Source of the DNA: a virus
Lineage: Duplodnaviria; Heunggongvirae; Uroviricota; Caudoviricetes
Strand: one strand, 5' to 3'
Virus record (IMG/VR): IMGVR_UViG_2778261035_000014
DNA length: 27,714 bases
Below are positions 901 through 27,159 of the stretch, piece after piece (positions within the stretch are counted from its first letter, which is position 1; every line of letters starts with the position of its first letter). The position numbers and the translations under genes are program-made. The notes under the pieces are model-generated. The model made no database searches. It was not told the origin of the DNA and worked only from the letters and a program-made list of their open reading frames with translations.

Positions 901-2115
901 ATGACGATCAAGGGCAAAGGAACAAATTATCTTTACGTAAACAGTGACGGGATTTATATCATCCAGCTTCATATTCCCGTTTACATGCGCCACCTCTGGA
1001 ACGGTCGCAAGATGCTTAAAAAATCAACAGGCACTCGCGATCTTGTGTTGGCTCGTAGGTTTCGTGATCAGTACCTGATGGAGTTCAGAAGGCTACAGGC
1101 GCAATTCAACCCAAATGCTTATCTCCTCAAGATTCAGTCAGCCATTACCGATCTACGTTTCGTTGGTGCTGCATCTACTAATCTCGTTCCAGATTTTCAG
1201 ACAGCCACCAAAGGGAAACCTTCAACGCCAAAGTTAAAAGACCTTTGCGACGAATACATGAAGGTGTATTCAGACAGGCGGAGCTACTCCACTTTGCAAA
1301 AGTCTGCCCGTGCTGTCGAGGCGTTTACGAAATCCATAAAAAGACCAGCGATTACAATTGGCAGTATTGGTCGCCGTATGGTGACGGAGTTCCTGGAGGC
1401 TAACCAAGGCAAGTTTTCACCTCAAACGTTGCAGAACTGGCTAACCTCTTTGGGGAGTCTGTACGAATTCGCCAAACGTCGATATGACGCAATCCCGGAC
1501 AGTAACCCGTTTCACGGTCACAACCTCGAAGCACGGCGCACCATTGAAAGTTATCAACCGTTTGAAGCCAATCAACTGGATACCCTTATCAGAGAAGCGG
1601 ATGACGTTCTACGCGATGTCATATTAATTGGGCTGTATTCAGGAATGCGACTTGATGAGATCGCCAGCATTAAACGGGATGAGATTGTAATGTTGGAGGG
1701 TGTCAGATGTTTCTTTGTCAGCAAGTCCAAGACTGTAGCCGGGGTGCGGTATGTTCCGATCCACTCGCTACTGATGGGGATTGTTGATAAGCATCTGACA
1801 CAGAACAGTGGTGAATATCTTCTGGCACAGTCTAATAACATCATTCGGAAGGATGGCAAGCGAGGTCCGTGGTACAGCCAAAAGTTCACCCGGCTGCGTG
1901 ATAGCGTTTTGCCAACAGCTACAGATCGGCAGTGCTTCCACTCTTTGAGAGGGATGTTCATCACCTGCCTGGACCGGGCAGGAGTTCCCGAACAACGGAT
2001 CGGAGCCATTACGGGGCACACAGAGCAGAAAGCGAAAACTGAAGCATTCAGAACCTACAGCAAAGGCGCGGGGATGAAGGAACTATCAGAGTATGTGGAG
2101 TTGGTGAATTACTGA
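901..2115 (+). CDS. int: Tyrosine-type site-specific integrase (phage integrase family)
   Basis: 404 aa. C-terminal catalytic motifs are visible: SGMRLDE (Arg), HSLRGMF (His-x-x-Arg), GHTEQ...RTYS (His/Tyr). Its C-terminal half is about 70% identical to the 14141-15361 product. Confidence 0.9.
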   Translation: MTIKGKGTNYLYVNSDGIYIIQLHIPVYMRHLWNGRKMLKKSTGTRDLVLARRFRDQYLMEFRRLQAQFNPNAYLLKIQSAITDLRFVGAASTNLVPDFQTATKGKPSTPKLKDLCDEYMKVYSDRRSYSTLQKSARAVEAFTKSIKRPAITIGSIGRRMVTEFLEANQGKFSPQTLQNWLTSLGSLYEFAKRRYDAIPDSNPFHGHNLEARRTIESYQPFEANQLDTLIREADDVLRDVILIGLYSGMRLDEIASIKRDEIVMLEGVRCFFVSKSKTVAGVRYVPIHSLLMGIVDKHLTQNSGEYLLAQSNNIIRKDGKRGPWYSQKFTRLRDSVLPTATDRQCFHSLRGMFITCLDRAGVPEQRIGAITGHTEQKAKTEAFRTYSKGAGMKELSEYVELVNY

Positions 2116-2663: not shown

Positions 2664-2912
2664 ATGGCGAACAATGATAAGCAATCCTCGAAAGATGTAG
2701 CACATCTGGCAGCAGAGACTCTAAACAACCCAAACGCCTCTGCGATTCAGAAAAGTTTAGCGGGTTCGGTGCTATCACAAGCAGGAACAAAAAATCAGAC
2801 TGGCGCAAACATGGAAGCCAAAGCATCCGCAGCATTGAAAAACCCACGCTCAAGCGAGGTTACTAAAACCTTAGCTGGTTCGGTTGTTTCCCAATCGAAT
2901 AAAAAGCGCTAA
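2664..2912 (+). CDS. Small hydrophilic protein with an internal repeat (stand-alone moron-like gene)
   Basis: 82 aa with AGGTG Shine-Dalgarno. Internal repeat (Q/T)K(S/T)LAGSV(L/V)SQ occurs twice. Has its own promoter and terminator. Confidence 0.55.
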   Translation: MANNDKQSSKDVAHLAAETLNNPNASAIQKSLAGSVLSQAGTKNQTGANMEAKASAALKNPRSSEVTKTLAGSVVSQSNKKR

Positions 2913-2946
2913 AAAAAAGCCGGGATTAACCCGGCTCTCATGTTTT
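2911..2946. terminator. Bidirectional intrinsic terminator
   Basis: A8 tract, then stem gccggg/cccggc (2919-2924 / 2930-2935) with loop attaa, then tgtttt. It reads as hairpin plus T-tract on both strands, between convergent stops at 2912 and 2938. Confidence 0.6.
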
Positions 2947-3150
2947 CAGCTTTCGTTGTCGCTGTTCGCTCAAGTAGTACCTGATAGCGCTGTCGAATCC
3001 ATGCGTATGGATGCGGTCAAGAAGGCTGGAACGACTACACTCAAGCCTGCGTGCTAACGCTGACATGTTGATGATCGCATCATCGCCTTTACCGTCCAGA
3101 ATCCACTGCATCAGCGGCATGTTGCCAGTACCGATCAAAGCTAATTTCAT
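2938..3150 (-). CDS. Small helix-turn-helix DNA-binding protein (70 aa)
   Basis: ATG at 3150 with a perfect AAGGAG Shine-Dalgarno 6 nt upstream. HTH-like segment MSALARRLECSRSSLLDRI. C-terminus AIRYYLSEQ resembles the 17329-17544 product (AVQYYVSKQ), and both sit just downstream of the capsid gene. Confidence 0.6.
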   Translation of the reverse strand: MKLALIGTGNMPLMQWILDGKGDDAIINMSALARRLECSRSSLLDRIHTHGFDSAIRYYLSEQRQRKLKT

Positions 3151-3263
3151 ATATATCTCCTTTCCTTTGCCTCCAGCACCGAAGGTGTCTCGCAATAGCG
3201 AGAGTGCTTCGCACCGTTAGCCTCGCCAGCAGCGGGGGCAATGCGCCCCCAAAATCCGCTGTC

Positions 3264-4280
3264 TTACGCCGCGTCATCCATCGTAATTTTCAAAACGAAG
3301 TCCGGACGCATTGGGATCTGAATTTGTGATAGCTCGCTGACCACCTCATAATTCATGAACTTATCACGCAGAACGTAATGGTAAGACGGATAAACCGGAC
3401 CATTAGCAACTTCTGCGTGGCGTGAGGCTGGCGTGCAGTAGGTCATATAAGGTGAAAGGTCGCCTTCAACAACATTGGAGAACGTCGCCAGCATGTAGCC
3501 TTCACCATCTGCAATGCCATATAGCGGATCGTCAACCTGCACCACTGTTACACGCCCGATGTTATATCGATCATATGCACCCAAAGTGTCAGGGAAAATG
3601 ATGTCACGGGACGTAGCACCAAACAGAGCCGCCTGATATGCGGTTGGGTTGCCTTGAATGGCGGTGAAAAGACTCGGACTCGCCAGCAGATAAACCTGCT
3701 TGATGCTGGAAGACCAGCCACCCAGATTTTTCTTCAGCAGCGTGACAGCGTTCTGCATCTCAGTAATGACGTTGGCACTGATGCCAGTTTTCACCACAGC
3801 AGACGGCTGGTTAATACCCCAGAAGGTTTGCCAGTTCAGATCAGGACCTTCACGTAGGTGTGTCGCCTCTACAGTATTGTGAAGCAGGCTCTGCGCCATG
3901 GCATATTCAACATCACGGCGGGTTTGCAGGTAGTGCTTCAGGGTATGATTAGCAACTACATCTTCAGCGGTCATCTGGCGATTTGTTCCCGGCTGACGTT
4001 TCCCCTGCCAATCCTGGCTGGTGATGGTTGAGCTGTAGACATGCAGTGGAGCCTGAACGGTCACGTTAGCCGCTTTAGGGAAGTTTAGACCCGACATTTC
4101 AGAACCATAACGGGCAACTGATTTAGTCACTTCACGCTGCACATCTTCAAGTGTGTCGAGTGCGATGATTTGCGTATCACTTGGACGGCTGGTAAAGATC
4201 CCCAGGCTGGACAGAAGGAACCCCTCGCCGCTTGGCTTCACGAATTGACCAGAAAGATTAGTAAAATCACTTAATTTCAT
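3264..4280 (-). CDS. Major capsid protein, lambda gpE-like (Phage_cap_E-type)
   Basis: 338 aa against about 341 for lambda E. By eye it shares block patterns with my recollection of gpE, such as a C-terminal RPDFVLKIT motif. Paralogous to 17665-18693 (DWQGKRQPG vs DVQGKRKPG). AAGGAG Shine-Dalgarno. Follows a ~115-aa gene, as in lambda D-E. Confidence 0.7.
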   Translation of the reverse strand: MKLSDFTNLSGQFVKPSGEGFLLSSLGIFTSRPSDTQIIALDTLEDVQREVTKSVARYGSEMSGLNFPKAANVTVQAPLHVYSSTITSQDWQGKRQPGTNRQMTAEDVVANHTLKHYLQTRRDVEYAMAQSLLHNTVEATHLREGPDLNWQTFWGINQPSAVVKTGISANVITEMQNAVTLLKKNLGGWSSSIKQVYLLASPSLFTAIQGNPTAYQAALFGATSRDIIFPDTLGAYDRYNIGRVTVVQVDDPLYGIADGEGYMLATFSNVVEGDLSPYMTYCTPASRHAEVANGPVYPSYHYVLRDKFMNYEVVSELSQIQIPMRPDFVLKITMDDAA

Positions 4281-4298
4281 ATTGTTATCTCTCCTTGA

Positions 4299-4643
4299 TT
4301 AGATTGCGGTGTTTGCGTCAGCAATACGGTTGCCTTGCTTAACAAGGGCAGCGTAAGCAGCATCTTTTGCAGCAGCCGCTACAACCAGACCTGATGGATT
4401 GAACACGCATTGGGTATCACTGATAACAAGGCTACGGGCATCACCAGCGACTTGATTTTGCAGAGCTACAGCACAGTTATCAGCATCTGCTGCAACGTAT
4501 GCCGCGCCAGTGGTCGGGTTAATCACATCACCACAAGTCACATCAGCAGCCAGATCAAGGATCACGGTGCGCTTATGAAAGATCGGTGAATCGGTATAAA
4601 CCAATACATCCTGTGGGGTTTTGCTTTCGTATTCGAATGCCAT
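4299..4643 (-). CDS. Putative head decoration protein (gpD-like by size and synteny)
   Basis: 114 aa from the ATG at 4643, which has a GGAGA Shine-Dalgarno (ORF-track start is 4658). Directly upstream of the capsid gene with an 18-nt gap. Paralog at 18712-19083. Product is assigned from size and position, not from clear sequence identity. Confidence 0.45.
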   Translation of the reverse strand: MAFEYESKTPQDVLVYTDSPIFHKRTVILDLAADVTCGDVINPTTGAAYVAADADNCAVALQNQVAGDARSLVISDTQCVFNPSGLVVAAAAKDAAYAALVKQGNRIADANTAI

Positions 4644-4694
4644 ATTTTGTATCTCCATACAGTTTTTATAATCCGGCGAATATGCCGGGTTGAG

Positions 4695-4722
4695 TTGAAA
4701 AAATACCGTCCATCGGACGGCA
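4695..4722 (-). terminator. Intrinsic terminator or attenuator upstream of the capsid operon
   Basis: Stem ccgtcc/ggacgg (4706-4711 / 4715-4720), followed on the minus strand by TATTTTTT. A second hairpin ccggc/gccgg at 4673-4688 lies between it and the start codon. Confidence 0.4.
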
Positions 4723-4996
4723 TTCTTCTATTCGTGTTCCAACAGAAAAAGACCAAGGCGAGAATATCCCGCCCGGTGTAGGTCAGTAGTTTTCTGATGG
4801 AGAGATTTGGAAAGCATGAGTGTGTTCACGCTTCAGGAATAAGGAGGCGGCAACGCTCCAAAGAATGGGTAAGGAGACCCAAAAACGTTGCCACCTGATG
4901 CCGTTAGTGTCCGGCTGACAGCCTTCCGAGGATGAAAGGGCTTTGGCAAATCTCCGATCCAAGGTCGGAGAAAATTCTTCTACACCCGTTTACGGG

Positions 4997-5016
4997 TTAG
5001 CAACATATGTTGCTAA
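4997..5016. promoter_or_regulatory. Perfect 20-bp palindrome ttagcaacatatgttgctaa (candidate operator)
   Basis: Exact dyad symmetry, preceded by hairpin cccgtttacggg (4985-4996). Sits in the 650-nt ORF-free gap between the tape-measure-like gene and the capsid genes. Confidence 0.4.
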
Positions 5017-5313
5017 TCGCTCTACGATACTTTTCTAATACAGCCAGCGGCAATGGCCTAACCTTCCCGTGAGAGAGTGCGGATTATTGGCTGTATGAGA
5101 AAAGGCCCGCACGGTGTTCACACAGGCACTTTAAGTAAGGAGAAGGAATGACAACGGCTGTTGTACGCACATACAATTTAAATCATCACCCTATGCAATT
5201 ATTTTAACACGAATGATTATCATTTGCAACAACAAAAACAATAACATGGCGAATTTAACGGCCCTCTCTCGTGTGGGCCAATTTACTACGTCATTTTTGA
5301 CGGAACGATGATT

Positions 5314-7482
5314 TTAGTCCGCAATCCCAAGGATGAGGTTATTCTGCGCCTGGTTGTTTTCCCTTATCTTGGTATCAATCAGACCGTTAATCGCACCATC
5401 ATTAACATTCACCTCAAGAGGCGCAAACTTGATCTCAGCTTCGCCAGTGACCGCAACAGGAATCGGCTGTCGTTGAACTATGCTATCAATTGTCGGAACC
5501 GTGAACGTTGGTTGCTGGGGTGTCAGATAGTTCAGGCCAGGAACATTCAACGCTAGTGCTGGATCGTTATACGCCATGCCTGAGCCGATATTGCTCGGAG
5601 CGGAACTATCCAGCCACGGGTAAATCTGCTTAAGCGTCTGACCGATGCTACGTGGATCAAAGCCGGTCTTTTCCTTAATCCAATCGGCAGCACCATTTGA
5701 GGAGTCATCTACCACGCTCGTATAAACCGCATCCGGCAATGTTGCGCCTTTCTTGAGTTCTTCACCGACTCGACCAGCGAAGGAAAGAATGTTGGTGGTT
5801 AGCTCACCAAGAGCAACGCCGAGGGCATCGGAAATTGGGATCAGTCCAGTCATATTCTGACGTAGAGTGTCAGTATTGGCAGCGTACTGCCCCAGGCCTT
5901 CAACAAACGAGGCTGAGAAGTGATCCGCAAGACTTGTTTGTACTCGGTTGTACTCAGCACCCAAAGCTGCCAGCTTATCAAGGTTGGCCTGCTGTGCATC
6001 AGATAGGGTCCATCCTTCAGAAGCGAGTTGATGCATACGGGCAATAACTTCATCACCTTCCCCACTGATACCCGCCATCAAGACCGATCCGTCATTGATC
6101 GCTTCCAAAAAATGACGCATGGAATTCTCTGTCCAGCCGAATTGTTTACCCAACTGCCGCACATAGGTAACGAAGGTCCCCATGTCCAATTTCTGAAGCT
6201 CGCCAATCACTTTTTGTGCTGTTCGCTGGTTGGTTTTGCTAAGAACTGCATTCACCAGATCGGCAAGTTCACCACCTCCGCTGAATGTTGTTACCCCTTG
6301 CTTGTTAGTTTTAAAGGAACCGGTATTCAGTAGCTCACCTGCTTTCTCGAAGTAATCCTTATTCATGGACGCATACTTATCTACGGTCAGGTCGTACCCT
6401 GTACGCTTCTGTACAACGTCATGGATAGCATTAAATTCAAGCTGGCTAATATCATACTGCCTTAATTGCTGCGCCTCTCTGGAGCGTTCAAGACTCCCCT
6501 GGAGGGTCTGACCAACACGAGCAACTCCCATTGAACCAATCAGGGATCCCCCTGCAATTACACCAGTGGCAGCGAGGCCACCATAACCACGTTCGCTACG
6601 TTCACGTCTCAAACGTTGAGCATTAACGCGCCCTGCTCGCTCTACTTTAGCCCGATCCTTAACCATCTGGCGGTTAATACGTGCCTGCCGCCTGGTTTCC
6701 AGAGTCGCTTTAGCAAGTTCATGGCGCATTTCTGCGATGGTATAACGCTGCTCGGAGTATCCCTTGGTAGCCTCTTTGATTGCCTGCACCGCTTTCATTT
6801 TGTCAGCCAGGCTGGCACCTTCGATATGGCTGATCGTTAAACTGGCGCGGCGTAGGGTGTCGTATGCAGTGCTCTGGCGCTTGAGGCTGGCTTCTTTCTC
6901 ACGCTGGCGCTTCTCTTCCAGGGCCATCGCCTTTTTGGTGGCTGCGATGTCAGCAGCAACAGCGCCGTGACCACGGTTCATTGCGTCAGTCTGACGGGAA
7001 ACAAGACCAGGATCGTAATGTTGACCGCCCATGTTAGGGTTGTAGGTCATCGCTCGTGATCTGGCTGCGGCCTGCACTTTTGCGGATATATTGGCTAAAC
7101 GGGCGTTTTGTCTCCGGATCTGTTCACTATCTGCCAATTGTTGAGCCTGCCCTCTGGCGTTAAGAGCCTGCATTTTCCGGGCGTGAGCCTCTTCCTGTTT
7201 TGCGATCTTTGCCTGGGCTTGGGCCTGGCGTTGTTGCTCTAGCGAAAGCTTTTGAGCCATTTTGAGGCGCTGTGTTTGAGCGCGGGCTGCTTCAAGGGCT
7301 GCTTTACCCTCACTCTGGGCGGTTCGCTTCTGAGCTTGCTCCAGCGCTTTAGCAGGTTTGGTAGTTAATTGCTGAAGTGACAGAATTTTCTTCTTCGCTG
7401 CTTCGTAACTAGAGCGGGAAATTTCCCAGCTTACGATATTGACGGTGCTCGTCACTATCTTGTTGGTTGTTCCACTACTCAT
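5314..7482 (-). CDS. Long coiled-coil protein with a glycine-rich hydrophobic segment (tape-measure-like, function unresolved)
   Basis: About 722 aa from the ATG at 7482 (MSSGTTNK...), which overlaps the upstream stop in ATGAGTAG. N-terminus is Ala/Gln/Lys/Arg-rich and helical. Central segment GYGGLAATGVIAGGSLIGSMGVARVG. Analogous to 15469-17310. Confidence 0.6.
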   Translation of the reverse strand: MSSGTTNKIVTSTVNIVSWEISRSSYEAAKKKILSLQQLTTKPAKALEQAQKRTAQSEGKAALEAARAQTQRLKMAQKLSLEQQRQAQAQAKIAKQEEAHARKMQALNARGQAQQLADSEQIRRQNARLANISAKVQAAARSRAMTYNPNMGGQHYDPGLVSRQTDAMNRGHGAVAADIAATKKAMALEEKRQREKEASLKRQSTAYDTLRRASLTISHIEGASLADKMKAVQAIKEATKGYSEQRYTIAEMRHELAKATLETRRQARINRQMVKDRAKVERAGRVNAQRLRRERSERGYGGLAATGVIAGGSLIGSMGVARVGQTLQGSLERSREAQQLRQYDISQLEFNAIHDVVQKRTGYDLTVDKYASMNKDYFEKAGELLNTGSFKTNKQGVTTFSGGGELADLVNAVLSKTNQRTAQKVIGELQKLDMGTFVTYVRQLGKQFGWTENSMRHFLEAINDGSVLMAGISGEGDEVIARMHQLASEGWTLSDAQQANLDKLAALGAEYNRVQTSLADHFSASFVEGLGQYAANTDTLRQNMTGLIPISDALGVALGELTTNILSFAGRVGEELKKGATLPDAVYTSVVDDSSNGAADWIKEKTGFDPRSIGQTLKQIYPWLDSSAPSNIGSGMAYNDPALALNVPGLNYLTPQQPTFTVPTIDSIVQRQPIPVAVTGEAEIKFAPLEVNVNDGAINGLIDTKIRENNQAQNNLILGIAD

Positions 7483-7858
7483 TGCCCCCCCCCTGCTGCT
7501 TGATGATATTGCCGTAACGATCAGGATCAGATTTTGCGAGTGCAGCAGCCGCTGCTTTAGCTTTCGCCAGCATTTCAGGATCGATATGGTCAGCGGTATG
7601 TGAGACAACCGGACGGCTATCAGCACCCAACGATTTTTTAATCCGTTGTTCAGCACCAAAGGTGTCTCGCATTGGTGAGAGGGCTTCGCCCTTTTTACCC
7701 GTGGGTGTGTCAGCCGGGGCTGATTTGAGCAACTCCGGATGTTGATCCAGAAAGTTATCGGTGACGCTCTTCAGATTGTCCCGCGCTTTTTGAAGTTCGT
7801 ATTCCTCCGGTGTCATGCCATGCATGGCGGCGAAAATCCGGTCTTTTATTGTGGTCAT
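7475..7858 (-). CDS. Hypothetical protein (127 aa)
   Basis: ORF with a GGAGA Shine-Dalgarno, translationally coupled to the downstream long gene. Contains the MRDTFGAE segment whose DNA (7655-7695) is about 85% identical to 3175-3217. Confidence 0.45.
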   Translation of the reverse strand: MTTIKDRIFAAMHGMTPEEYELQKARDNLKSVTDNFLDQHPELLKSAPADTPTGKKGEALSPMRDTFGAEQRIKKSLGADSRPVVSHTADHIDPEMLAKAKAAAAALAKSDPDRYGNIIKQQGGGNE

Positions 7859-8029: not shown

Positions 8030-8608
8030 TTAGTAGTGCAGGCGTGGTGAACGTCGCTGCGGGTTCTTCTGTTTTCTGGCGACTGTTTCACGATAGGCCA
8101 CAAACAACGGATCAGTATGATCCGGCATTCGAGATGCCATTTCTTTTTCAGTGATTCCTTCACGCTTAAGCAGCGTCACCACGGTGAATAGAGGCAGTTG
8201 AAGGTCAGCACAGATTTTTGCCAGCATTGCGCCGGATTCGTAGTACATTCGGGCCATTCGCTTAGTGGCATACTGACTGGTATTGCTTATCTTACGACAG
8301 CGAGGATTCCACGAGTTATCGTAAAGGCCTTTTACCAGGTCATACGGCAAGCGTAGGAGCAGCGCCGTTTTGCCTGGGGTGTAACCATGCACGAGCATTT
8401 TTTTAGCAGTCTCGATCAGCGAAGAATCACGAGAGCGGGATTTGTAAAAACGTGACAAATCGGGGGTTTCAGCACCGGAGGTGTTTACCTCTGGTAAACT
8501 GCTTCGCACCGTAAGGGATTCAGCCGTCAGGCCGTTGGCTGTCTGGCTGATGCCAGTTACTTTCTCACACAATATTCCTCCAGTATCAAAAAGGGATCTC
8601 AGGATCAT
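8030..8608 (-). CDS. Hypothetical HTH-containing protein (possible regulator or small-terminase-like); start uncertain
   Basis: ORF of up to 199 aa whose 5' end overlaps the rep-like gene. HTH-like segment GAMLAKICADLQLPLFTVVTLLKREGI. No family recognised with confidence. Confidence 0.35.
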   Translation of the reverse strand: MILRSLFDTGGILCEKVTGISQTANGLTAESLTVRSSLPEVNTSGAETPDLSRFYKSRSRDSSLIETAKKMLVHGYTPGKTALLLRLPYDLVKGLYDNSWNPRCRKISNTSQYATKRMARMYYESGAMLAKICADLQLPLFTVVTLLKREGITEKEMASRMPDHTDPLFVAYRETVARKQKNPQRRSPRLHY

Positions 8609-9389
8609 CTTCATCGTAGTGATATACATCCGGCCCGTTAACTTGTTGCTTTACTGGCGCTGGTTCTGTTGCGGGTATATCGTCAGGCCGCATCTGTTCT
8701 CCTGGCTCACCCATATTGGTTTTGCCTTTCAGTTTCCATACAAGTTTGATCTCATCCTGCCAGGTTGTAGCACCATGGGATTGCGCCCAGCGTCGCGCCT
8801 CTGGAACCAAATCCCCACGAGAGGTAAACGAGTTGGCGAGCCATGGTATCCCGACAACATTTTCCCCAGCTGACTCACTCAGTGATGGATCATCACTATT
8901 GGATAAATCAACATCGACAGGAATATCCACAGCAGGTACGCCGTCTGGTTTTCCAGTAACAGGCGCGGCAGATGCCACCACGAAAGATTCCACAACAGGT
9001 TTTTGCTCATTCTTACCGCTCTCCTCGGTTTCCACTTTTCTATTACTCGCCTGCGCGGAATTATGATCGTCAAGAAAAACCATCAGCGATGGATCGAGTT
9101 CGACCGGAGAAATTTTGTGTGTACTCCCCTTCACTTCCTCAAAAGTGATCATTCCAGCTTCACGAAGCTTGTTCCTGAAATTGCGAACGGCTTCGGGCTT
9201 GCAGCCGCAACGTTTACCAATCGTGCCAACAGATTCGTAATAAGTTCTGCCTGTTTTGTCATAGCTGTAAACCAGAGATAACAAAATTTTCATGTTGCCA
9301 TTAATGGTCAGGCCGTTGTACTCGGTAAGGTCGAGAACGCTGTATTCAAGTTTTACAAAATCCTTACTGTCCCGGTTCTGTTTGCTCAT
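8586..9389 (-). CDS. Replication-initiator-like protein with N-terminal winged-helix DNA-binding domain
   Basis: 267 aa with a GGAGA Shine-Dalgarno. N-terminal segment KILLSLVYSYDKTGRTYYESVGTIGKRCGCKPEAVRNFRNKLREAGMIT is typical of phage or plasmid replication initiators. Acidic Pro-rich C-terminus. Positional analogue of 21938-22603. Confidence 0.55.
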   Translation of the reverse strand: MSKQNRDSKDFVKLEYSVLDLTEYNGLTINGNMKILLSLVYSYDKTGRTYYESVGTIGKRCGCKPEAVRNFRNKLREAGMITFEEVKGSTHKISPVELDPSLMVFLDDHNSAQASNRKVETEESGKNEQKPVVESFVVASAAPVTGKPDGVPAVDIPVDVDLSNSDDPSLSESAGENVVGIPWLANSFTSRGDLVPEARRWAQSHGATTWQDEIKLVWKLKGKTNMGEPGEQMRPDDIPATEPAPVKQQVNGPDVYHYDEDDPEIPF

Positions 9390-10102: not shown

Positions 10103-10850
10103 TGGGTTCTCCGTTCTGTTAAAAGAATTATTCGCGGAGGTTCTATTTGTAACCCATTTTGTATTGCCGTGAGGTTGACAAGGAATGTCGTGATGACGGC
10201 AGAATTATTCGAGGATTCATAGGTAAATCATTACCCTACTAGAATCTATTGTATCAGATTTGTCTGTAAATAGCAATCATTATCATGTAGGATTTTATAA
10301 TGCATAATAATCACCATAACACTACAAGTTTACAAAATCTTTGTCAATAGTGCCAAGCCGTTCTATAACGCGTTCTGCGGGTACTTGTCACCATAGGAGT
10401 ACATACGTATCACCACCACCGTTTAAACGCCATAGAGAGGCTTTAAGGAGGTCTGTTAGTTAACCCGCGCCGCCCCGGAGTGAACCGGACAGATGCAAAG
10501 CAGTCCTCTACGCCGTGCTCCGCTCCACATATGGCGAACAAGTTCGCAGCTTCCACACAGAGTAAGAGCGTAGCTCTATGGCGTAGCCTGCCGGGTTACC
10601 CGAGTCACAGAGCGGAGCGATGTGTTAACGAGGGTTAGAAGGTCACGAGATGGCGTGGCTGTTTCACGTCAGCGAAGGTGAGCTTCTTACCACAAACATA
10701 TCTGAAGTGGCTGACCAGCCATTGCAGAGCGGAGCGATGCAGAAGCATCACTATTAAAACTAACAGAATGACCAACCGTCATTCCGTGCTCTCGACCTGG
10801 AGGTACTTTTCTTATCAGTTCTTTTATGGGGATTGTTATTTATTATTATT

Positions 10851-10932
10851 GTGCTCGAAAATCGACTACCCCCTACTCGAAAATCGTGCAGGTAGGTGCT
10901 CGAAAATCGAGGGGGTGGGTACACGAAAATCA
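10851..10932. repeat. Iteron-like array: four ~23-bp direct repeats with core CTCGAAAATCG
   Basis: gtgctcgaaaatcg (10851), tactcgaaaatcg (10875), gtgctcgaaaatcg (10896), acacgaaaatca (10921). Spacing is 22-24 bp, about two helical turns. The spacers ctaccccct and agggggtgg are complementary. Confidence 0.55.
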
Positions 10933-12213
10933 TGCAGGTATCACCGGGTGAGAATTTTCCAAGTCATCCACGCGACCAACGCACCGATGAAAACTTCCGG
11001 TTTGATATGTCCGCGTCATGCTTCAATGGCACAATCAACGGCAACACCTGAGGCGGTCCAAACACCTGATCCGCTCCGAGAATTGATCATCTCCCTCCCC
11101 TGCTTTCATCTGAAAGTACCGACCATTCTCCGCGCTGGCTGAAGATTGGCAACCCTATACTGATTTTCTGTCAAAATTTGGTGGATGATCTTTACCATTG
11201 GCTATCTTGTAAACAAAATAGATTAAATGCACCTCAAATAGCCCATAATCCGTAGTTAATCATGCTAAAGTGGTCACTATGCGTACAAATCAGAAGTCTG
11301 AACCTATGGGCGTTATGGTGTGATGTACATAACGAAGCCTTGCCAGCACTGGAAGCGTGAAATTTGGTGGCTGGTATCTGGATCAAGCAACACTCAATTT
11401 CTGAACCTTCGCTTCAAAAAAATAATAAAACAACACACAAAACCAAAACAGATGCCCTCTGGTGGCTGCTGTATCGCGCTGTGGGATGCTGTGGATTATC
11501 GGTATGTCAGTTCACGTTTGTGTAGAGATAACGCCGCTACGGGTTTCTGGTTGAGCGTAGGAGGGATTGGTGGGTTGGCTGTTTACATTGTTGTGGGAAA
11601 TGGTACGAAACAGTGGCGGCCTGGCTCGGTGAATATCACCAGGTGATGGCAGACCTTCAGCCCGTTGTGGTAACGTCGCCGTAGTAGCCCTATGTCTGCT
11701 GCGAATAGAAAAATGTGCTTTTATGGCATTTGATGCACTGTAAACTTCAAAGGCCTGAAACCTGAAATTGTGTGGTGACCAGCCAAACTCATCCAAAATC
11801 CTTGAACAAGAGAACTCACCTCAAATCCTCCTGAATGCTTTCCTTCTGTTGGTGAAATCGCTGTTGTGTACCACGCTTCGCATCAACGCTCCGAAAAGCA
11901 ATACCTGACTATTCCAGTCAAGTACATGTAAGATACAATATGTTAAATGGCTGTACAATTAGTGAACACAGGCACTTCAAAACATCAAGTTATCTCCCTT
12001 GCCTCAGCCCAAAGCAGCATTGTGTAACTGCACTGCTTGTTGCAGTGAGGCGTGTCGCTGAAGGCATCACGTAGCGATATTTGGCGAAGAAAAGCGCTTT
12101 TCACCGAGGGCCTGGGCTGACGGTCTAGCAGATCACCAACAGAGCTGGGGATATTTTCAACAGGAGAATGTAAACTTGGAAGATAAAGAGCCGGGACACT
12201 TACGGGGCAGGTT

Positions 12214-12429
12214 GTGGAAATGAAGAAAATTTTACTATTTGTTGTGGTACTGCTGCCGCTGGCGGCTCATGCAGGAAAAATCACCATAAGCAACCCCGAC
12301 GAACAAGAATTACAGGGCGGGAAAAGGCTTTGCACTTACGAAAACAGCATTTATCTGTTTACGCTGGTGACTCGCTCGCAATCCTGCCCTTTCTCAAAAA
12401 CGTTCGATACAAATGATAATGAAAAGTGA
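12214..12429 (+). CDS. Small secreted protein with two conserved Cys (paralog of 25846-26061)
   Basis: About 70 aa with signal peptide MKKILLFVVVLLPLAAHA. Conserved blocks GKITISNPDEQ, LCTYENS.YLFT, CPFSKTFDT are shared with the element-2 paralog. Confidence 0.6.
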   Translation: MEMKKILLFVVVLLPLAAHAGKITISNPDEQELQGGKRLCTYENSIYLFTLVTRSQSCPFSKTFDTNDNEK

Positions 12430-12442: not shown

Positions 12443-12931
12443 CTAATGGGGTGCTTTGCCGATCATCTCCTTAAGATCTTTGAAGCGTTCTTTGATTATT
12501 CTTCCATTCTCGGCTAAACGATTCGCTTCAAACGCAGTGAATTGAGCAATATTTTCTATTTCTTCGCGGCTGATGCTCATAAAATTCTCATCAAGCTTAG
12601 AGAGCATATTTGTGACACCTTGTCTACTTTGTGTAAAGAAACCAAGGTTATCTCTGACACCCTTAAGAAGTTCTTTCTTACCATAAGGGTTCATATTTGT
12701 ACTCGTTTCTATAGACTTGATAAGCTCTTCCGTGTCACTACATATTCCACGGTAAACCAGTTCGACCTCACGAAGCTCTTTCACTGTATCAATTTTCATT
12801 TTCCTTAATGAATCATGCTCAGCATTTTTTCTTGATCGATAGGTGTTATACAGAGCAGTTATACTGACAACAAGTGCAATGAAAGAGAATAGAGCGCTAA
12901 AAAAAGGCAGCAATTCTTTTGACATTTTCAC
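12443..12931 (-). CDS. Membrane-anchored coiled-coil protein (cargo, unknown function)
   Basis: 162 aa with a GGAG Shine-Dalgarno. N-terminal TM helix LLPFFSALFSFIALVVSITALY, then a charged helical domain. Low GC. Confidence 0.6.
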   Translation of the reverse strand: MKMSKELLPFFSALFSFIALVVSITALYNTYRSRKNAEHDSLRKMKIDTVKELREVELVYRGICSDTEELIKSIETSTNMNPYGKKELLKGVRDNLGFFTQSRQGVTNMLSKLDENFMSISREEIENIAQFTAFEANRLAENGRIIKERFKDLKEMIGKAPH

Positions 12932-12953
12932 TCCAAATTTATTAGTCTAGAAG

Positions 12954-13652
12954 TTAACTTCTAAATTTTTGAAAACAACGTCGATCAATCTCTTGTGCCA
13001 ATCTAGTCCGCATCTCTCCATAGCTTAATCTTTCCATATCTGAGGCTATTTTCCAACCACAACCTTTGAAATTACATTTAATAATAGGAAATGGGACATA
13101 GTTATAGAGATCAACGCTGGAGTGTTGGCTAAGAAGGCCTCCACATTTAGGGCATCTCATGTGAAGATTTATTAAAGAGTACCCACTATCACCTAATGCT
13201 TTAGTCCATTCCCAAGAAACTATCATTTCATAAATATTATCCGAAGTATAATGCAAAAAACTGCCCTCTTGTCCTGTAGCTTTCGCTGCAATACGACGGC
13301 GCATTACAAATCCAACAGTAGGTAAAATTGCCAATAATAAAATCGATAAAATGAGGAGCATCCATAAGGGCATTGTGACTGGGAAGGTAAGGATGTCCAT
13401 TAACCAATGGAAGAACTGCTTAATGTAATTCCATAGCCACACAACGACGGCGATCCCACTTCCTCCAGTGACAAGTGCAACGATAACGCCCGATATGCTG
13501 TCTTTGCTAAGGTCTTTCAACCATGCCATAGAAATTCTTCTTATTAAGCTATTCTTTATGCTCAATTTTACAGCGAACCAGATTTTAGGCAATAGGAGCC
13601 ATAAAGCGCCGTGATGGGTACATCCATCGATCAGCGCCTTCAGGCGTGTCAT
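12954..13652 (-). CDS. Membrane protein with C-terminal 4-Cys zinc ribbon (cargo, unknown function)
   Basis: Up to 232 aa; the start may instead be the internal ATG at 13529. Two or three hydrophobic helices, then CPKC-(x25)-CNFKGC. Sits 22 nt upstream of the 162-aa gene, so probably an operon. Confidence 0.55.
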   Translation of the reverse strand: MTRLKALIDGCTHHGALWLLLPKIWFAVKLSIKNSLIRRISMAWLKDLSKDSISGVIVALVTGGSGIAVVVWLWNYIKQFFHWLMDILTFPVTMPLWMLLILSILLLAILPTVGFVMRRRIAAKATGQEGSFLHYTSDNIYEMIVSWEWTKALGDSGYSLINLHMRCPKCGGLLSQHSSVDLYNYVPFPIIKCNFKGCGWKIASDMERLSYGEMRTRLAQEIDRRCFQKFRS

Positions 13653-13977: not shown

Positions 13978-14064
13978 CTCTAAGCACCGGAAACATAAAG
14001 ATTTTTTAGCTGATTTTAAGCGTAAAAAATCGCTGGAGCGGGCGAAGGGAATCGAGGAAACCCA
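13978..14064. repeat. Inter-element att junction: 16-bp motif (13978-13993) and 22-bp core (14043-14064)
   Basis: Same two motifs as at 786-832 but in the opposite order and with 49 nt between them. Confidence 0.6.
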
Positions 14065-15468: not shown

Positions 15469-17310
15469 TTAACTTGGTGCTTGCCCAGACAGAGCCGCCA
15501 ACGTGAAACTACGTTCAAAATCTTGTTGGATACTTCCCACTTTGTAATCGAGGTATGATCCAAGCTGACTACCATCAGGGGCGATATTCACATCCACCTT
15601 GCTTTCCGGCACGTTTACGACGATGTTCGGTGCATACGTCATAGATGGGGTAGTGTTCAGATCACGGCTAACGTTCTGTTTCAGGGATTGCACGTTATCA
15701 GATGGGCTTGCATAGTTCTGAATTGCAGTTCCGCCAGTCGTTGGCTTGTCTTCCGTGCCAGGAATAGGATCTAAGCCTAAAGCACTACGACCCCAATCAA
15801 CCATACCACCTACAAACGAGTCCTTATAATACATACCGGACGAATCAAGGTTTTCATGCTTGTTCTCTGGGTTGATATTTTGGTATGCAGCAGTAAGCCA
15901 CGATACAGCACCAGCAAAGGCGCTCATCATTTCAGCCGTTGAGCTTCCAAGTTCTTTAAACAGAGGATTCAAATCTTTCAACATTTGCGCCCACTCTTCA
16001 CCAGCTTGAGCATCGAACTCTTCACCAAATCCAGTCATGATAGCTTTCTTACTACCTTCCCATGCCATATTCATATTTGCCTGTACCGCTTGCAGACGTT
16101 CGGCAGCGTCCAGATCCGCTTGTGTATAGGTGGCATTGGCCTTTTGCATCTTAACGATGGTCTTGTTTAGCTCTTCACCATTACGACTAAAGGCACCACG
16201 GAAATATTGCAAATCATTGCCCAGGTCTTCAAGGATGTGCCCGATTTCTTGATCTGATAATCCACGGCGTTCACCTTCTTTCACTACAGCGCCCAGGAAA
16301 CCTAAAGGATCAGTCTGGAAACCTTTAACCTGTTCAGGTGACCAGCCATATTTATTAAGGATGTTATCGACGGCACCATTACCGCCAGCCCAGCGACCTT
16401 TCTTAGCGTCCCATTTGGTATTCCCTACGGATTCACCTAAACGTTCCTGAACGTCTTTAAGGTTGTCTTGACGTTGGTCTACGGAACTATCAACACCGTG
16501 TTCTAAGCCGTACTGGTTGAGAGCTAACAGGGCGTTAGTGTTTACGTTGACAGCCTTTGCCTTGCGGTTAGTGTCTGTGATCTTGCTTGCCTGATCGGTT
16601 ACGGTATTGAATATCGCAGCACCGCCGAAAGTAGCAGCAGTGAGAGCGGCACCGCCTACCATTGCACCGACACCAGCGCCCATATGACCACCTTTAAGCT
16701 GTTTAGCCATATGTGGGTATTTACCGCCATCAGCCGCCACCTGGCGAGCTTTTACAGCAGCCGCACGGCGTTCTAACGTGATACGATCACGGATCAGGTG
16801 ATTCATCTTAGCCTGACTTATAGCGCCTTTCTCATACGCTGCCGTTTGTGCTTTGATGTATTGCAATGTTTTGTAGTACTGGGCGCTGTTCATACCGTCG
16901 CCCATACGCCCTTTTTTGATGCCTTCAAGCTGGCGGAAAGCTTGCTGGCGTTTAATCTCTGCCTTCTCTGCTATTGTCGCTTTAGCGCGGATCTGTTTAT
17001 CGGCAGCTATAGCGGCTTTAGCCTTCGCTTTAGCTTCTGCCTTTGCCACCTTATCAGCGTTCTTCTTGTCTGTTTGAGCTTGCTTGTCTGACGCTTTAAC
17101 ATCAGCTTTAGCCTGTGCAGCTTTACGAGCCTTTACCAGATCATGAGCATCGTCTATAGCTTTTTTAGCCTTCTTCCCTTTCAATGTTGGATTGGTCAGG
17201 TTTTCCATTTCTTTTTGAAATTTCTTCCCTGCATCGCGTGCTTTCTGCAATGATGCAAAATCAACTTTAAATACAACCTTGTTTGTTAAGGTTGAGATGT
17301 TTAAATCCAT
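15469..17310 (-). CDS. Long coiled-coil protein with glycine-rich hydrophobic segment (tape-measure-like, function unresolved)
   Basis: 613 aa with an AAGGA Shine-Dalgarno. TolA-like KAKAEAKAKAKAAIAADKQIRAK helix, then GGHMGAGVGAMVGGAALTAATFGGAAIF. Lies downstream of the capsid and HTH genes, unlike element 1. Confidence 0.6.
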   Translation of the reverse strand: MDLNISTLTNKVVFKVDFASLQKARDAGKKFQKEMENLTNPTLKGKKAKKAIDDAHDLVKARKAAQAKADVKASDKQAQTDKKNADKVAKAEAKAKAKAAIAADKQIRAKATIAEKAEIKRQQAFRQLEGIKKGRMGDGMNSAQYYKTLQYIKAQTAAYEKGAISQAKMNHLIRDRITLERRAAAVKARQVAADGGKYPHMAKQLKGGHMGAGVGAMVGGAALTAATFGGAAIFNTVTDQASKITDTNRKAKAVNVNTNALLALNQYGLEHGVDSSVDQRQDNLKDVQERLGESVGNTKWDAKKGRWAGGNGAVDNILNKYGWSPEQVKGFQTDPLGFLGAVVKEGERRGLSDQEIGHILEDLGNDLQYFRGAFSRNGEELNKTIVKMQKANATYTQADLDAAERLQAVQANMNMAWEGSKKAIMTGFGEEFDAQAGEEWAQMLKDLNPLFKELGSSTAEMMSAFAGAVSWLTAAYQNINPENKHENLDSSGMYYKDSFVGGMVDWGRSALGLDPIPGTEDKPTTGGTAIQNYASPSDNVQSLKQNVSRDLNTTPSMTYAPNIVVNVPESKVDVNIAPDGSQLGSYLDYKVGSIQQDFERSFTLAALSGQAPS

Positions 17311-17664: not shown

Positions 17665-18693
17665 TTACGCTACTGTGATCTGTACAGTGAAGCCTACGCC
17701 GTGGTTTACAACCATCTGGCTATTCTCGGTAACTACGTTTACAGCGTCGTTACGTGCTGGGCTAAATGCATAGCTGTAATATTCAGCCGATCCAGAGTTC
17801 AGAAGGTCGAACGTTGAAGAAGGAGCGCCGAAAATGTTCTGATAGACGTTAGAGCCTTTAGCGAACTTCGGAACAGCCACCGCATCAGAAGTCATATGAG
17901 CCAGCAGCAGCGGATCGGTAACTTTGATCAGATCAATGTTAGTGCCTGGAATAGTGAAGGTAGTCACACCTGGCAGCAGGGAGCGCACACTATAAACGAT
18001 GTTTGCGTCATCGGTAGGGCTTGCATACTGGAACGCGTTAACCATGCCAGCACTGTAACGGATAGCGTTAAATGCAGCAGGTTTACAGAATACAACGATA
18101 CGCTCTACAGCAGCCGCCTGGCTTTGTGCTTTAGTAATAACGTCTGTATGCATCTGATCGAATTGCTGGAACACCATAGAAGGCGTGGTGCTTGATGCGT
18201 CGATGGTTGCAGTCAGCGGAACAGCACTAAACAGATCGCCCCACTGAATCAGCACATCGTCAGTTTTAGGGGTGTAGGTGCGACCACTAAACAGGGAAGC
18301 AGCCAGTACGCTTTCTTTAGTACGCTGGAAAGCAATGTGGTGCTTAGCAACATATTCCGCGTAGATATCTGTCAGAGTCTCTTCAACGGTAGCGCCTGGT
18401 TTACGTTTGCCTTGAACGTCTTGCGGCTTAATCATATCTTCACGCAGGAAGTAGGGGATCTCTACTAAAAATTCTTTACCCTGTTCACGTTTAGTCACGT
18501 TATGTTCAGAAGAGAAACGAGAGGTTTCTTTGTTGAACAGAGATTCGTTAGTTTCCACCAGTTGGCTAACAGCCACTTTATGAGAACTCACACCTACCGG
18601 ATCAGTGAAGTCCAGAGTAGTTAACAGGAAGTTGCGAGAGTCGTGCAGACTAAACAGCGGAGCCAGATCGACGGATTCATTACCAATAATCAT
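17665..18693 (-). CDS. Major capsid protein, lambda gpE-like (second copy)
   Basis: 342 aa with an AAGGA Shine-Dalgarno. Paralogous to the 3264-4280 product and preceded by the small partner gene. Confidence 0.7.
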   Translation of the reverse strand: MIIGNESVDLAPLFSLHDSRNFLLTTLDFTDPVGVSSHKVAVSQLVETNESLFNKETSRFSSEHNVTKREQGKEFLVEIPYFLREDMIKPQDVQGKRKPGATVEETLTDIYAEYVAKHHIAFQRTKESVLAASLFSGRTYTPKTDDVLIQWGDLFSAVPLTATIDASSTTPSMVFQQFDQMHTDVITKAQSQAAAVERIVVFCKPAAFNAIRYSAGMVNAFQYASPTDDANIVYSVRSLLPGVTTFTIPGTNIDLIKVTDPLLLAHMTSDAVAVPKFAKGSNVYQNIFGAPSSTFDLLNSGSAEYYSYAFSPARNDAVNVVTENSQMVVNHGVGFTVQITVA

Positions 18694-18711: not shown

Positions 18712-19083
18712 TTAAGATGTGAATACAGTGTTAAAACCAGCCATCTGGAAGCCTTTAGCAGCCAGAGCAGCAATAGCGGCTTCTTTAATAGCGCCTTCAA
18801 CATTCAGAGCATCAGACTTGATGCAAACCAGTCCGGCATTGCTACGCAGCACGTTAACGGTTTTAGCGTCGCCAGCGGATACCGCATCAGACACAACCAC
18901 AAGAACATCGCCGCCGCTTACATATTCAGCGCCGTTACTGGTAATCAGATCGCCGCATTCCACATCAACCGCCAGATCAACGGTAAAAGATTGCACACAA
19001 CCGAACTCATCAGTTGCATAGCTCACGATATCGGTAAATGATTTGCGAACTGGAAACAGATCGCTCATATTAATAATAGCCAT
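18712..19083 (-). CDS. Putative head decoration protein (gpD-like by size and synteny)
   Basis: 123 aa, 18 nt upstream of the capsid gene. Positional and size analogue of 4299-4643. Confidence 0.45.
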   Translation of the reverse strand: MAIINMSDLFPVRKSFTDIVSYATDEFGCVQSFTVDLAVDVECGDLITSNGAEYVSGGDVLVVVSDAVSAGDAKTVNVLRSNAGLVCIKSDALNVEGAIKEAAIAALAAKGFQMAGFNTVFTS

Positions 19084-19085: not shown

Positions 19086-19301
19086 TTAATAGTTTCCTTT
19101 TTTGGATTGTTTGATTTGTTCTGCTTTTGCTTTAATCAGATCCTGCATAGTAGGCTTCTGTTCATCAGCAGACTTAAAAAGCTTATCACAATGTTTTTTC
19201 AATTCTGTTGGAGTGATCCCCAACATATAAGCCGTAGCATTGAATGTTTCATCAGTGATAATCAATTCTTCGTTACCATTCTTTAGAATGAGATTTTGCA
19301 T
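19086..19301 (-). CDS. Hypothetical small protein (71 aa) leading the capsid operon
   Basis: ORF ending 2 nt before the decoration-like gene. Lys/Glu-rich. No counterpart in element 1. Confidence 0.45.
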   Translation of the reverse strand: MQNLILKNGNEELIITDETFNATAYMLGITPTELKKHCDKLFKSADEQKPTMQDLIKAKAEQIKQSKKGNY

Positions 19302-19330
19302 TGTTGCTTTACCTTTTCTAACATTCTTGT

Positions 19331-19361
19331 TTAGTGCTGATAAAATAAAACCGGAAGGGGA
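19331..19361 (-). terminator. Intrinsic terminator upstream of the capsid operon
   Basis: 7-bp stem ccggaag/cttccgg (19341-19347 / 19355-19361), followed on the minus strand by TTTTATTTTA. Confidence 0.55.
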
Positions 19362-20175
19362 AAACTTCCGGCTTTATGAATACAACATTTTGAAGGATGC
19401 GATAGAAGTGTTACTAAATCGTAGTTATATGCACTTAAAGAGGATAGGACATATAAGAATAAGATTGCTTATTGTTATATACCCTTGAGGGGTGAATAAC
19501 AGGCTTACAGGGAGTAGGCGCTTAGGAGGTCGCCCCCTTTGGAGAGGAATCTATAAACCTGTTATTCGTGCGATGGCTAATCGCTGTCGTCACAATGTGG
19601 ATGCATCGATCAGACGTTCAGGAATCACCTATTAACTTTCAAACCTTTTTGGATTCTCGTTTTAATAGGAGTGGTGCCGAGATGATTTCGGGGATCATCC
19701 ACGCTTTCGCGTTCTAAGATTGGCACCTTAATAAACACCAACAAACAAAAAACGTATTCAGCTTTAGGCTTAGTAGAATTGCTGTTAAGAAACAGATATA
19801 CACCGTTATTTGTTTATACGGGGTTTATAGACACTGTAAACAGTGTTTTTAGAAAGTGTTTCATGCTTCACAGTTGGTTAAAAAGATGAGGGGCCAAGTC
19901 CATAGCCCCTGCATTCTTAAGACACAATTTTGATAAAGCAATAAGGAAAATAAAATGAAACTATTAACGAGGGAAACAATTTCTAAAAATCACTGTAAAG
20001 GGAAAGCGAGGTAGGTTAGATAGGGCGCGACCCCTTGAGGTCTACCCCGCTTTCGTGTAGGATTAAAATCTGGAGAAGGATTAACGCCAGCTAACACCTG
20101 TTTTAGATTATTTCCTCTACATTTCTTATTATATAACATTTCTGTTATAAAGTCAATAGTTAAATCAAAGTTTTT

Positions 20176-23917: not shown

Positions 23918-23969
23918 GTAGGAACTCATTTCCTGGGTAGGTAGGAACTCATTTCCTGGGTAGGTAGGG
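23918..23969. repeat. Tandem direct repeat, 2.3 copies of 23-bp unit gtaggaactcatttcctgggtag
   Basis: Exact copies at 23918-23940 and 23941-23963, then a partial copy; preceded by duplicated agtttaatt. Confidence 0.7.
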
Positions 23970-26486: not shown

Positions 26487-26508
26487 ATTGCCCCTAATTT
26501 TAACAAGT

Positions 26509-27144: not shown

Positions 27145-27159
27145 GTTGCCCCCTAACAA

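Follow-up and report, generated by a model that had tools for sequence, protein, structure and literature searches.

The window analyzed in this study is the whole 27,714-nucleotide (nt) stretch of IMG/VR record IMGVR_UViG_2778261035_000014. It is part of the chromosome of E. coli and is 100% identical to strains RM10740 (locus L001), 90-1 and others. The window holds two related integrative elements. Element 1 comprises 13,248 bp between exact 22-nt direct repeats, which are the left attachment (att) repeat at 786–807 (TGGAGCGGGCGAAGGGAATCGA) and the right att repeat at 14034–14055. The repeat TGGAGCGGGCGAAGGGAATCGA is the reverse complement of the 3′ end of tRNA-Gly, and the same att core flanks the related elements L019 and L020. 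No tRNA gene was found in the window by ARAGORN. Element 2 begins at the second repeat copy (14034–14055), which is its left att repeat, and extends past the end of the window. Both have been inserted in tandem at a single att site, beside a ygeQ pseudogene, and a 170-nt stretch of their integrase genes is 74% identical, indicating that the integrases are related. The subject of this study is the minus-strand region at 2938–4658, which is the capsid operon of the 13.2-kb element 1 and is thus part of an insertion at a tRNA-Gly gene.

The operon consists of three minus-strand open reading frames (ORFs). In the order of transcription, they encode a small partner protein of 114 amino acid (aa) residues (4299–4643, with the ATG at 4643 as called by PGAP; the ORF extends to 4658, or 119 aa), a 338-aa protein (3264–4280) and a 70-aa protein (2938–3150, with the ATG at 3150 and a strong ribosome-binding site, GGAAAGGAG; the ORF extends to 3195). 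A promoter-like site with a TG extension (TTGCAA, a 17-nt spacer and TAAAAT) is found at 5229–5201 of the minus strand, the gap between the first two genes is 18 nt, and an intrinsic terminator (2905–2936, minus strand; hairpin AGCCGGG-TTAA-CCCGGCT followed by T8) lies directly after the stop codon of the third gene. Given its own promoter, the 18-nt gap and the terminator directly after the last stop codon, the operon is real, as a first-pass annotation made from the sequence had proposed when it described a compact operon of a capsid gene, a small upstream partner and a small gene. Moreover, the gene for the 70-aa protein was always found 3′ of the capsid gene in both element types.

The 338-aa protein is identified by homology as a major capsid protein (MCP) homolog, predicted to have the HK97 fold and to be of the gpE/phi92 gp124 type. 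It matched PHROG 29 (major head protein) with an E-value of 5.7e-10 and Pfam PF03864 (Phage_cap_E) with an E-value of 3.7e-4. The latter match covered positions 19–328 of the 329 positions of the model and scored 20.1 bits, which is below the curated cut-off of 22.9. A family profile built from 19 members matched the solved phi92 gp124 over its full length (E 1.5e-26) and also matched the MCPs of PhiTE, Bas63, Sf14 and ICP1. In addition, the comparison with the MCP of Phapecoctavirus anhysbys gave an hhalign probability of 99.5% over 320 columns, and PGAP named the protein, WP_000777010, "major capsid protein." The AlphaFold2 (AF2) model of the protein was of low confidence (pLDDT 50.4). The top 21 Foldseek matches of this model were all phage capsid structures, with TM scores of only about 0.35, and encapsulin and engineered cages were found lower in the list. 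Because the model is poor, the assignment of the fold is based on homology and not on the model. The MCP of element 2 (342 aa; 17665–18693, minus strand) matched Phage_cap_E above the cut-off (E 1.7e-10, 41 bits), and the identity between the MCPs of the two elements was 23%. The dN/dS values of MCP ranged from 0.05 to 0.13, which points to strong purifying selection. The earlier description of the protein as gpE-like therefore stands insofar as it is a capsid homolog of the Pfam gpE family. Its closest relatives, however, are MCPs of phi92/phAPEC8-type myophages and not lambda gpE. No BLASTP match was found to lambda-like gpE or to the capsid homolog of EcCICFT073, a phage-inducible chromosomal island (PICI).

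The partner is probably a head decoration or stabilization protein. Its gene lies directly upstream of the MCP gene, which is the position of the decoration gene in Stephanstirmvirinae, where a gene for 132–133 aa is found about 20 nt upstream of the MCP gene. Sub-threshold matches to Pfam PF02924 (HDPD) were obtained for 9 of the 36 members of the partner family, with a best E-value of 2.5e-5; the partner in the window scored 21.4 bits against a cut-off of 29.1. The best PDB match of a broadened partner profile was the phiTE head stabilization/decoration protein, at an E-value of only 0.025. Pairwise and hhalign comparisons with a lambda-like gpD, the decoration protein of EcCICFT073 and two decoration proteins of Stephanstirmvirinae were negative, and an exhaustive profile search of 1.84 billion representatives identified 41 relatives and no bridge to a curated decoration family. 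The AF2 model of the partner (pLDDT 45) was unusable and gave no Foldseek match. The partner of element 2 (123 aa; 18712–19083, minus strand) is 33% identical to that of element 1, and the dN/dS values of the partner ranged from 0.08 to 0.21. The gpD-like label previously given to the partner is weakly supported by the HDPD and phiTE matches, and most of all by the gene position. Similarly, the helix-turn-helix (HTH) label of the 70-aa protein agrees with an HTH-like pattern, conserved between the two element types, for which only sub-threshold generic HTH matches were found.

The first-pass annotation also regarded element 1 as capsid-only, with no tail genes. This proved to be incorrect. The 722-aa protein of element 1 (5314–7482 from the PGAP start, minus strand; the ORF extends to 7659, or 781 aa) and the 613-aa protein of element 2 (15469–17310, minus strand) are tail tape-measure homologs of the phi92 gp134 type. 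The former matched the tape-measure families of PHROGs (3e-10) and was 27% identical (E 1e-27) to the product of the gene at the tape-measure position of Klebsiella phage FBKp34, which lies between the tail chaperones and the baseplate. The latter matched phrog_16051 at 6e-67 and aligned end-to-end with the tape measure of Phapecoctavirus anhysbys (28% identity, E 1e-62). The profile of the tape-measure family matched the solved phi92 gp134 (7.4e-77) as well as the tape measure of phiTE (4.9e-9). The tape measures of the two elements were 23% identical, and the dN/dS value of one pair was 0.25. The 781-aa ORF had also been considered as a P4 alpha-like primase; this candidate was rejected, as the ORF has no primase or helicase domains and is a tape-measure homolog. 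PGAP named the tape-measure homolog at 5314–7482 "chemotaxis protein" and an ORF of 65–71 aa at 19086–19301 "ACP S-malonyltransferase"; both names seem to be wrong. Among element-2-type elements, the tape measures (15469–17310 of the window compared with 11322–13151 of L005) were about 25% identical and the adjacent MCPs 77% identical, so that the tape-measure gene either has been swapped between these elements or evolves very fast.

About 45 element-2-type relatives possess one more tail-related gene directly after the tape-measure gene, for instance at 13183–13896 of L005, 10279–10992 of L088 and 13254–13928 of L018. Its product of 222–237 aa matched Pfam Dit_like at 3.4e-29 and was 58–72% identical to gp253 of Phapecoctavirus, whose gene follows the phage tape-measure gene. 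These identities are far higher than those for MCP or the tape measure.

The presence of tail proteins bears on the suggestion that such elements could form a self-sufficient, portal-less particle or compartment, such as an encapsulin-like shell or a mini-virus that needs no helper. Metagenomes have led to proposals of small HK97-fold entities without portal or tail genes (bioRxiv 10.1101/2025.06.18.659913), and some element-1-type relatives (L030 and L031) contain the capsid module only. However, MCP is of a typical tailed-phage type, its best structural matches were phage capsids with the encapsulins far down the list, no function for cargo loading or packaging was found, and a tape measure, with or without a Dit-like protein, only makes sense with a tail. 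A self-sufficient particle is thus very improbable.

The structural proteins linked the elements to one group of phages. Search with tblastn for the MCP of element 2 identified 244 phage records, of which those from E. coli and Klebsiella were phi92/phAPEC8-type phages. As 138 of the 244 records were Pseudomonas phages, this type of MCP is not confined to one subfamily. Three tape measures of the family each matched 134 phage records with a near-identical breakdown of organisms; the matches listed were Stephanstirmvirinae-type phages of about 140–156 kb, and those whose taxonomy was checked belonged to Stephanstirmvirinae. Two small ORFs also have homologs in Phapecoctavirus. The 71-aa ORF of element 1 (12214–12429, plus strand), which has a signal-peptide-like and lipoprotein-like N-terminus, is 34% identical to gp209 of anhysbys, and its relatives reach 53% identity to gp209. 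The 70-aa ORF of element 2 (20176–20388, minus strand) is 41% identical (E 1e-12) to gp057 (phrog_27862) from the early region of anhysbys. In the phages, the structural genes are arranged in the order of large terminase subunit (TerL), portal, protease or scaffold, decoration, MCP, neck, sheath, tube, chaperone, tape measure, Dit-like and baseplate. The MCP and the tape measure of the elements, and the Dit-like gene of their relatives, are homologous to those of Stephanstirmvirinae, such as phi92, phAPEC8, anhysbys and FBKp34, and, together with the probable decoration gene that precedes MCP, are found in the same local order. Different from the phages, which are virulent, 140–150 kb in size and equipped with complete sets of virion and replication genes, the elements contain only 3–4 of those genes, with identities of 21–72%, in a 13-kb integrative backbone. 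Judged by homology and gene order, the virion genes of the elements appear to have descended from phi92/phAPEC8-type virulent myophages. In this phage supergroup, as reported for phiTE, the MCPs assemble into T=13 heads that carry beta-tulip decoration trimers (PMC11972413).

Elements 1 and 2 are members of a larger family. They share the partner, MCP, HTH-like gene, tape measure, integrase and O-like initiator, family members also encode regulators, and the same synteny was found in 19 IMG/VR loci, 7 GTDB genomes, 2 Logan contigs and 80 metagenome contigs. The GTDB genomes were from Enterobacter, Dryocola, Pseudocitrobacter, Kluyvera, Silvania and Pantoea, to which the names of homologs in databases add Klebsiella, Raoultella, Citrobacter, Cronobacter, Leclercia and Aeromonas. 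The element-2-type capsid module was found in 394 of 5,426 complete E. coli genomes, at no more than three copies and always on the chromosome, and the element-1 type in 12–15 genomes. Among the loci with enough flanking sequence, the tape-measure gene was present in all 53 of the element-2 type and in 18 of the 27 of the element-1 type; capsid-only variants also exist (L024, L030 and L031), and the elements of the window are not among them. The att-to-att distances of 12 elements ranged from 12.0 to 13.9 kb. L031 has no tape-measure gene and carries other cargo, and it is still 12.6 kb.

These results are pertinent to whether the elements are eroded prophages in which the capsid and tape-measure genes merely survived deletion and have no current function. 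Such erosion would account for the lack of most virion genes, for the loss of a small recombinase gene from element 1 (see below) and for the loss of the tape-measure gene from some relatives. However, the relatives that share the structural genes are virulent phages of about 150 kb without integrase, which are not sources of prophages, and over 100 loci from different genera share this compact architecture, as do two types whose MCPs are only 23% identical. Moreover, the full-length MCP and partner with their low dN/dS values, together with the uniform size of the elements, speak against decay and in favor of a functional shell whose size is constrained. We therefore regard the prophage remnant as highly improbable.

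No gene for terminase, portal or protease was recognized in either element, as the first-pass annotation had noted for element 1: Pfam, PHROGs and NCBIfam gave no match of this kind for any sizeable ORF, a tblastn comparison of the element proteins with the complete Phapecoctavirus genome identified none, and none was found by Pfam scans of 10 recurrent clusters of unmatched ORFs, out of 107 clusters across 108 loci. Sheath, tube and baseplate genes also had no match in either element, and scaffold and neck genes are likewise missing from the family. The elements nevertheless display the general features of satellites, which are an incomplete set of virion and packaging genes, an integrase, att repeats and a predicted replication module. 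As far as can be judged from predicted genes, the family does not possess the gene sets that define PICIs, capsid-forming PICIs (cf-PICIs), P4-like satellites or EPIPs. No match to AlpA, primase or D5/helicase of Gram-negative PICIs was found in either window element, and searches of PHROGs, Pfam and NCBIfam gave no match of any ORF to the P4-like set (psu, delta, sid, alpha primase-helicase and epsilon). From the cf-PICI set only MCP was found, and portal, protease, the small terminase subunit (TerS), TerL and head–tail adaptor/connector were not matched. Likewise, TerS, adaptor and stopper of the EPIP set were not matched and the integrase is of the tyrosine type, while MCP and tape measure are present.

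The lack of the PICI genes makes it quite unlikely that the elements are classical Gram-negative PICIs with a temperate lambdoid helper, in which the capsid and decoration homologs would be accessory. EcCICFT073 is such an island, with genes for a capsid homolog and a head decoration protein but none for terminase or portal (PMC6092414); the sizes are similar, both have an integrase, and Pfam places MCP in the gpE family. However, no AlpA or primase-replicase model was matched, and neither c1499/c1500 of EcCICFT073 nor lambda-like gpE/gpD showed BLASTP similarity to the proteins of the elements. The order of decoration gene followed by MCP gene is that of myophages and is the reverse of that in EcCICFT073, and the tape measure and Dit-like protein are also of the myophage (phi92) type.

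The comparative data are best explained if the element belongs to a family of satellites of phi92/phAPEC8-like phages and obtains the remainder of its particle from such a phage, and we consider this probable with moderate confidence. The first-pass annotation had left a choice between a helper-dependent satellite and an unusual particle-forming system; the former is retained, and the self-contained alternative found no support. Whether the family in its entirety represents previously unrecognized, widespread satellites of Stephanstirmvirinae in Enterobacteriaceae, which would provide their own shell and tail core (tape measure with or without the Dit-like protein) and steal portal, terminase, tube, sheath and baseplate, is in our judgment evenly balanced. 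Under the satellite model, infection by a Stephanstirmvirinae-type helper would lead to excision of the element and its replication from its own origin, and transcription would read through the terminators in the leader of the capsid operon. MCP and its partner would then assemble on the portal and scaffold of the helper to form a small shell for about 13 kb of DNA, which the terminase of the helper would fill. The T=4 shells of P4 and SaPI1 hold 11–15 kb. The particle would be completed with helper tails built around the tape measure of the element, with or without its own Dit-like protein. The same proteins would probably divert the assembly of the helper and thereby interfere with it. Possible benefits of an own tape measure are that it biases tail assembly to the element, that it interferes with the helper or that it allows escape from injection blocks.

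Interference could also be the sole function. The elements might be defense islands that are never packaged and spread otherwise, with the MCP, tape-measure and Dit homologs serving as dominant-negative decoys that disrupt the capsid and tail assembly of infecting phi92/phAPEC8-type phages and so protect the cell population. The structural homologs are indeed diverged copies of proteins that nucleate or size phage assemblies, and no packaging signal or TerS was recognized. Mobile elements that block tail assembly are known, such as the Tai systems (PMC11364771), and deletion of the capsid and decoration genes of EcCICFT073 left the plaque formation of lambda abnormal on the carrier, so that the role of these genes is unexplained (PMC6092414). 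However, a size range of 12.0–13.9 kb that is kept despite variable cargo and loss of the tape-measure gene suggests a packaging limit, which pure defense does not need. The elements also carry an integrase, their own initiator and iterons, and their MCP and partner are full-length and under strong purifying selection, as expected for a working shell. Interference and satellite transfer can also coexist. We regard an island devoted to interference as unlikely, although it is the main rival of the satellite reading.

Several observations weigh against the satellite reading. Neither experiments nor sequence data provide evidence for excision, replication or encapsidation of the elements. No circular-assembly overlap was found in 21 whole metagenome contigs and 2 Logan contigs near element size, where the sole end overlap, of 29 nt in L032, is its tRNA att repeat; the IMG/VR records, for their part, are proviruses predicted within larger contigs. 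Neither a TerS-like gene nor a pac or cos site was recognized, and a comparison with the whole anhysbys genome revealed no match at the DNA level and no shared pac or cos site. The identities to the phage MCP and tape measure are low (21–37%), so the link to these phages is ancient, and the present helper could belong to another, unsampled group. Both window elements lack the Dit-like gene, and the decoration and HTH assignments are weak. Moreover, element 1 has kept the 71-aa ORF and lost the small recombinase, both of which are kept in its relatives, and may thus be partly decayed. As for the novelty of the family, no description of it was found in a search limited to open-access literature, and an account may already exist.

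If the satellite reading is true, the elements would be, to our knowledge, the first satellites of virulent coliphages, and their "shell plus ruler" strategy would be new. In the best-studied bacterium, satellites would then extend from those with temperate helpers, such as P2/P4 and the lambdoid PICIs, to those of large virulent myophages. The phi92/phAPEC8-type phages have been widely isolated and are used as broad-host-range therapeutic coliphages. An element that hijacks or sabotages therapy phages and is found in about 7% of complete E. coli genomes, as well as in Klebsiella, Enterobacter, Citrobacter and others, would affect the outcomes of therapy and gene transfer. In addition, the elements encode the two proteins that set the dimensions of a virion without the rest of that virion. 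With them, one could ask in a clean setting what determines capsid size and tail assembly and how this is subverted. Public collections contain carrier strains, such as E. coli RM10740, 90-1, SCU-102 and APEC O1, as well as candidate helper phages, so the proposal can be tested directly.

The capsid operon of each element has its own near-consensus sigma-70 promoter, is insulated by terminators and is preceded by an untranslated leader of 0.55–0.85 kb with several terminator-like hairpins. The leader of element 1 is about 560 nt long (4644–5229, minus strand), has terminator-like hairpins at 5127–5105, 4774–4756 and about 4720–4700, and contains blocks that are kept in 10 related loci. The promoter and leader of element 2 are at 19302–20156 (minus strand), where TTGACT, a 17-nt spacer and TATAAT (20156–20128) form the promoter. 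A GC-rich hairpin is also found between the MCP gene and the gene for the 70-aa protein. The layout in both elements resembles that of an antitermination-controlled late operon. A common leader motif, TCCTTCTCC, was not found in relatives or phages, and an Rfam scan of the window gave no match. A 39-nt repeat whose two copies are 87% identical and can form two small hairpins occurs at 3174–3212, between the MCP and HTH-like genes, and at 7651–7689, inside a 127-aa gene, where it looks like an insertion relative to L004.

This 127-aa gene (7475–7858, minus strand) lies directly upstream of the tape-measure gene and is kept in element-1-type loci. The gene at the same position in L031 (7610–7972) and L032 (4682–5032) encodes a protein of Pfam PF26210 (Phage_phiTE_211) that also matches the N-terminal ~50 positions of phrog_2970. 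The 127-aa protein of the window is at best a distant relative of these proteins.

The backbone of element 1 begins with a gene for a tyrosine integrase of 404 aa (901–2115, plus strand), which matched Pfam Phage_integrase above the cut-off (1.1e-8) and was named a tyrosine-type recombinase/integrase by PGAP. The replication module includes a predicted initiator of 267 aa (8586–9389, minus strand), which matched Pfam HTH_36 at 1.2e-4 and the replication initiation, O-like and DnaD-like families of PHROGs at 9e-6 to 2e-3. Next to it, a conserved protein of 180–199 aa (8030–8629, minus strand) is kept in element-1-type loci and has no match to a hidden Markov model. Each element also contains a stretch of about 1.5–2 kb without ORFs. 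That of element 1 (10103–11615) is 75–87% identical in DNA sequence to the same region of L003, L004, L026 and L027, also without an ORF, and includes four iteron-like repeats at 10851–10940 with a spacing of 22–23 nt and the core CTCGAAAATCG; that of element 2 (22967–25177) contains tandem 23-mers at 23918–23963. The O-like initiator probably acts at the ORF-free region of element 1, which is thus a likely origin and control region.

The far end of element 2 (25178–26061, plus strand) encodes a small tyrosine recombinase of 224 aa, which matched Phage_integrase at 1.2e-15, and a 71-aa ORF. The small recombinase and the 71-aa lipoprotein-like ORF together form the conserved far end of family elements. 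The possibility that 25178–26061 is the start of a third element was rejected on the basis of this synteny in relatives, and the third downstream "integrase" listed by PGAP is also part of element 2 and not of a third element. The cargo beside the integrase or the far end varies between relatives (12443–13652 and 26067–27714 in the window, both minus strand). Among the cargo of relatives (L032 9675–11826, L048 153–1601 and L017 368–1114) were a DNA methylase together with an NmeDI-like nuclease, an AAA_15/AbiEii-like ATPase, an HNH endonuclease and an EAL protein. The cargo genes of the window had no significant PADLOC or Pfam match. Finally, a truncated ygeQ and an IS3 copy adjoin the tandem elements (1–594 of the window; 16726–18465 of L001).

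We know of no characterized satellite class that keeps only a capsid protein and a tail ruler. As is proposed for the elements of this study, cf-PICIs are satellites of Enterobacteriaceae that form capsids of their own and take only a part of the virion from the helper (PMC10085698). Different from the elements, cf-PICIs encode a complete head and the packaging functions (MCP, portal, protease, TerS, TerL and connectors) and no tape measure, whereas only MCP of this set is found here. PLE, the satellite of Vibrio cholerae phage ICP1, and PICMI resemble the family in having a virulent phage as helper, which is proposed here, in being integrated, in having their own replication and in the expected interference with the helper. 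However, PLE uses the coat protein of its helper with the external scaffold TcaP and has no MCP of its own (PMC10945586), PICMI has no capsid genes and packages concatemers (PMC10803314), and neither has a sequence relationship with the family.

The island SaPIbov5 encodes Ccm, an HK97-fold MCP homolog of its own, and uses the portal and terminase of its helper, similar to what is proposed here, with the formation of small capsids as the proposed purpose (as summarized in PMC6092414). SaPIbov5 differs in being a Gram-positive, cos-type PICI without a tape measure, and redirection of capsid size by Ccm has been demonstrated, whereas it is only predicted for the elements. Ccm and the MCP of the family are unrelated in sequence and were compared at the family level only. 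EcCICFT073 and related Gram-negative PICIs are E. coli islands of about 10–15 kb with an integrase, the capsid homolog c1499 and the decoration protein c1500, without terminase or portal, and are also presumed to depend on a helper phage (PMC6092414). Unlike EcCICFT073, the family has an O-like initiator in place of a recognizable AlpA or primase-replicase, the reversed gene order and a tape measure with or without the Dit-like protein, and its structural genes, which show no similarity to c1499/c1500, appear to come from virulent phi92/phAPEC8-type myophages and not from lambdoid phages. Given that capsid homologs without terminase or portal are known from EcCICFT073 and SaPIbov5, the core idea of the first-pass annotation is not new in kind.

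The EPIPs of Mycolicibacterium are 11 kb in size and, similar to the elements of this study, encode MCP, a tape measure, an integrase and an HTH protein (PMC12822802). Different from these elements, they possess additional genes for TerS, head-to-tail adaptor and stopper proteins, a scaffold and a serine integrase, were isolated as free particles and induce a temperate helper (PMC12822802). The family in turn has a tyrosine integrase and virulent myophages as relatives, and none of the head-completion genes of EPIPs was found in it. [quoted passage not shown]

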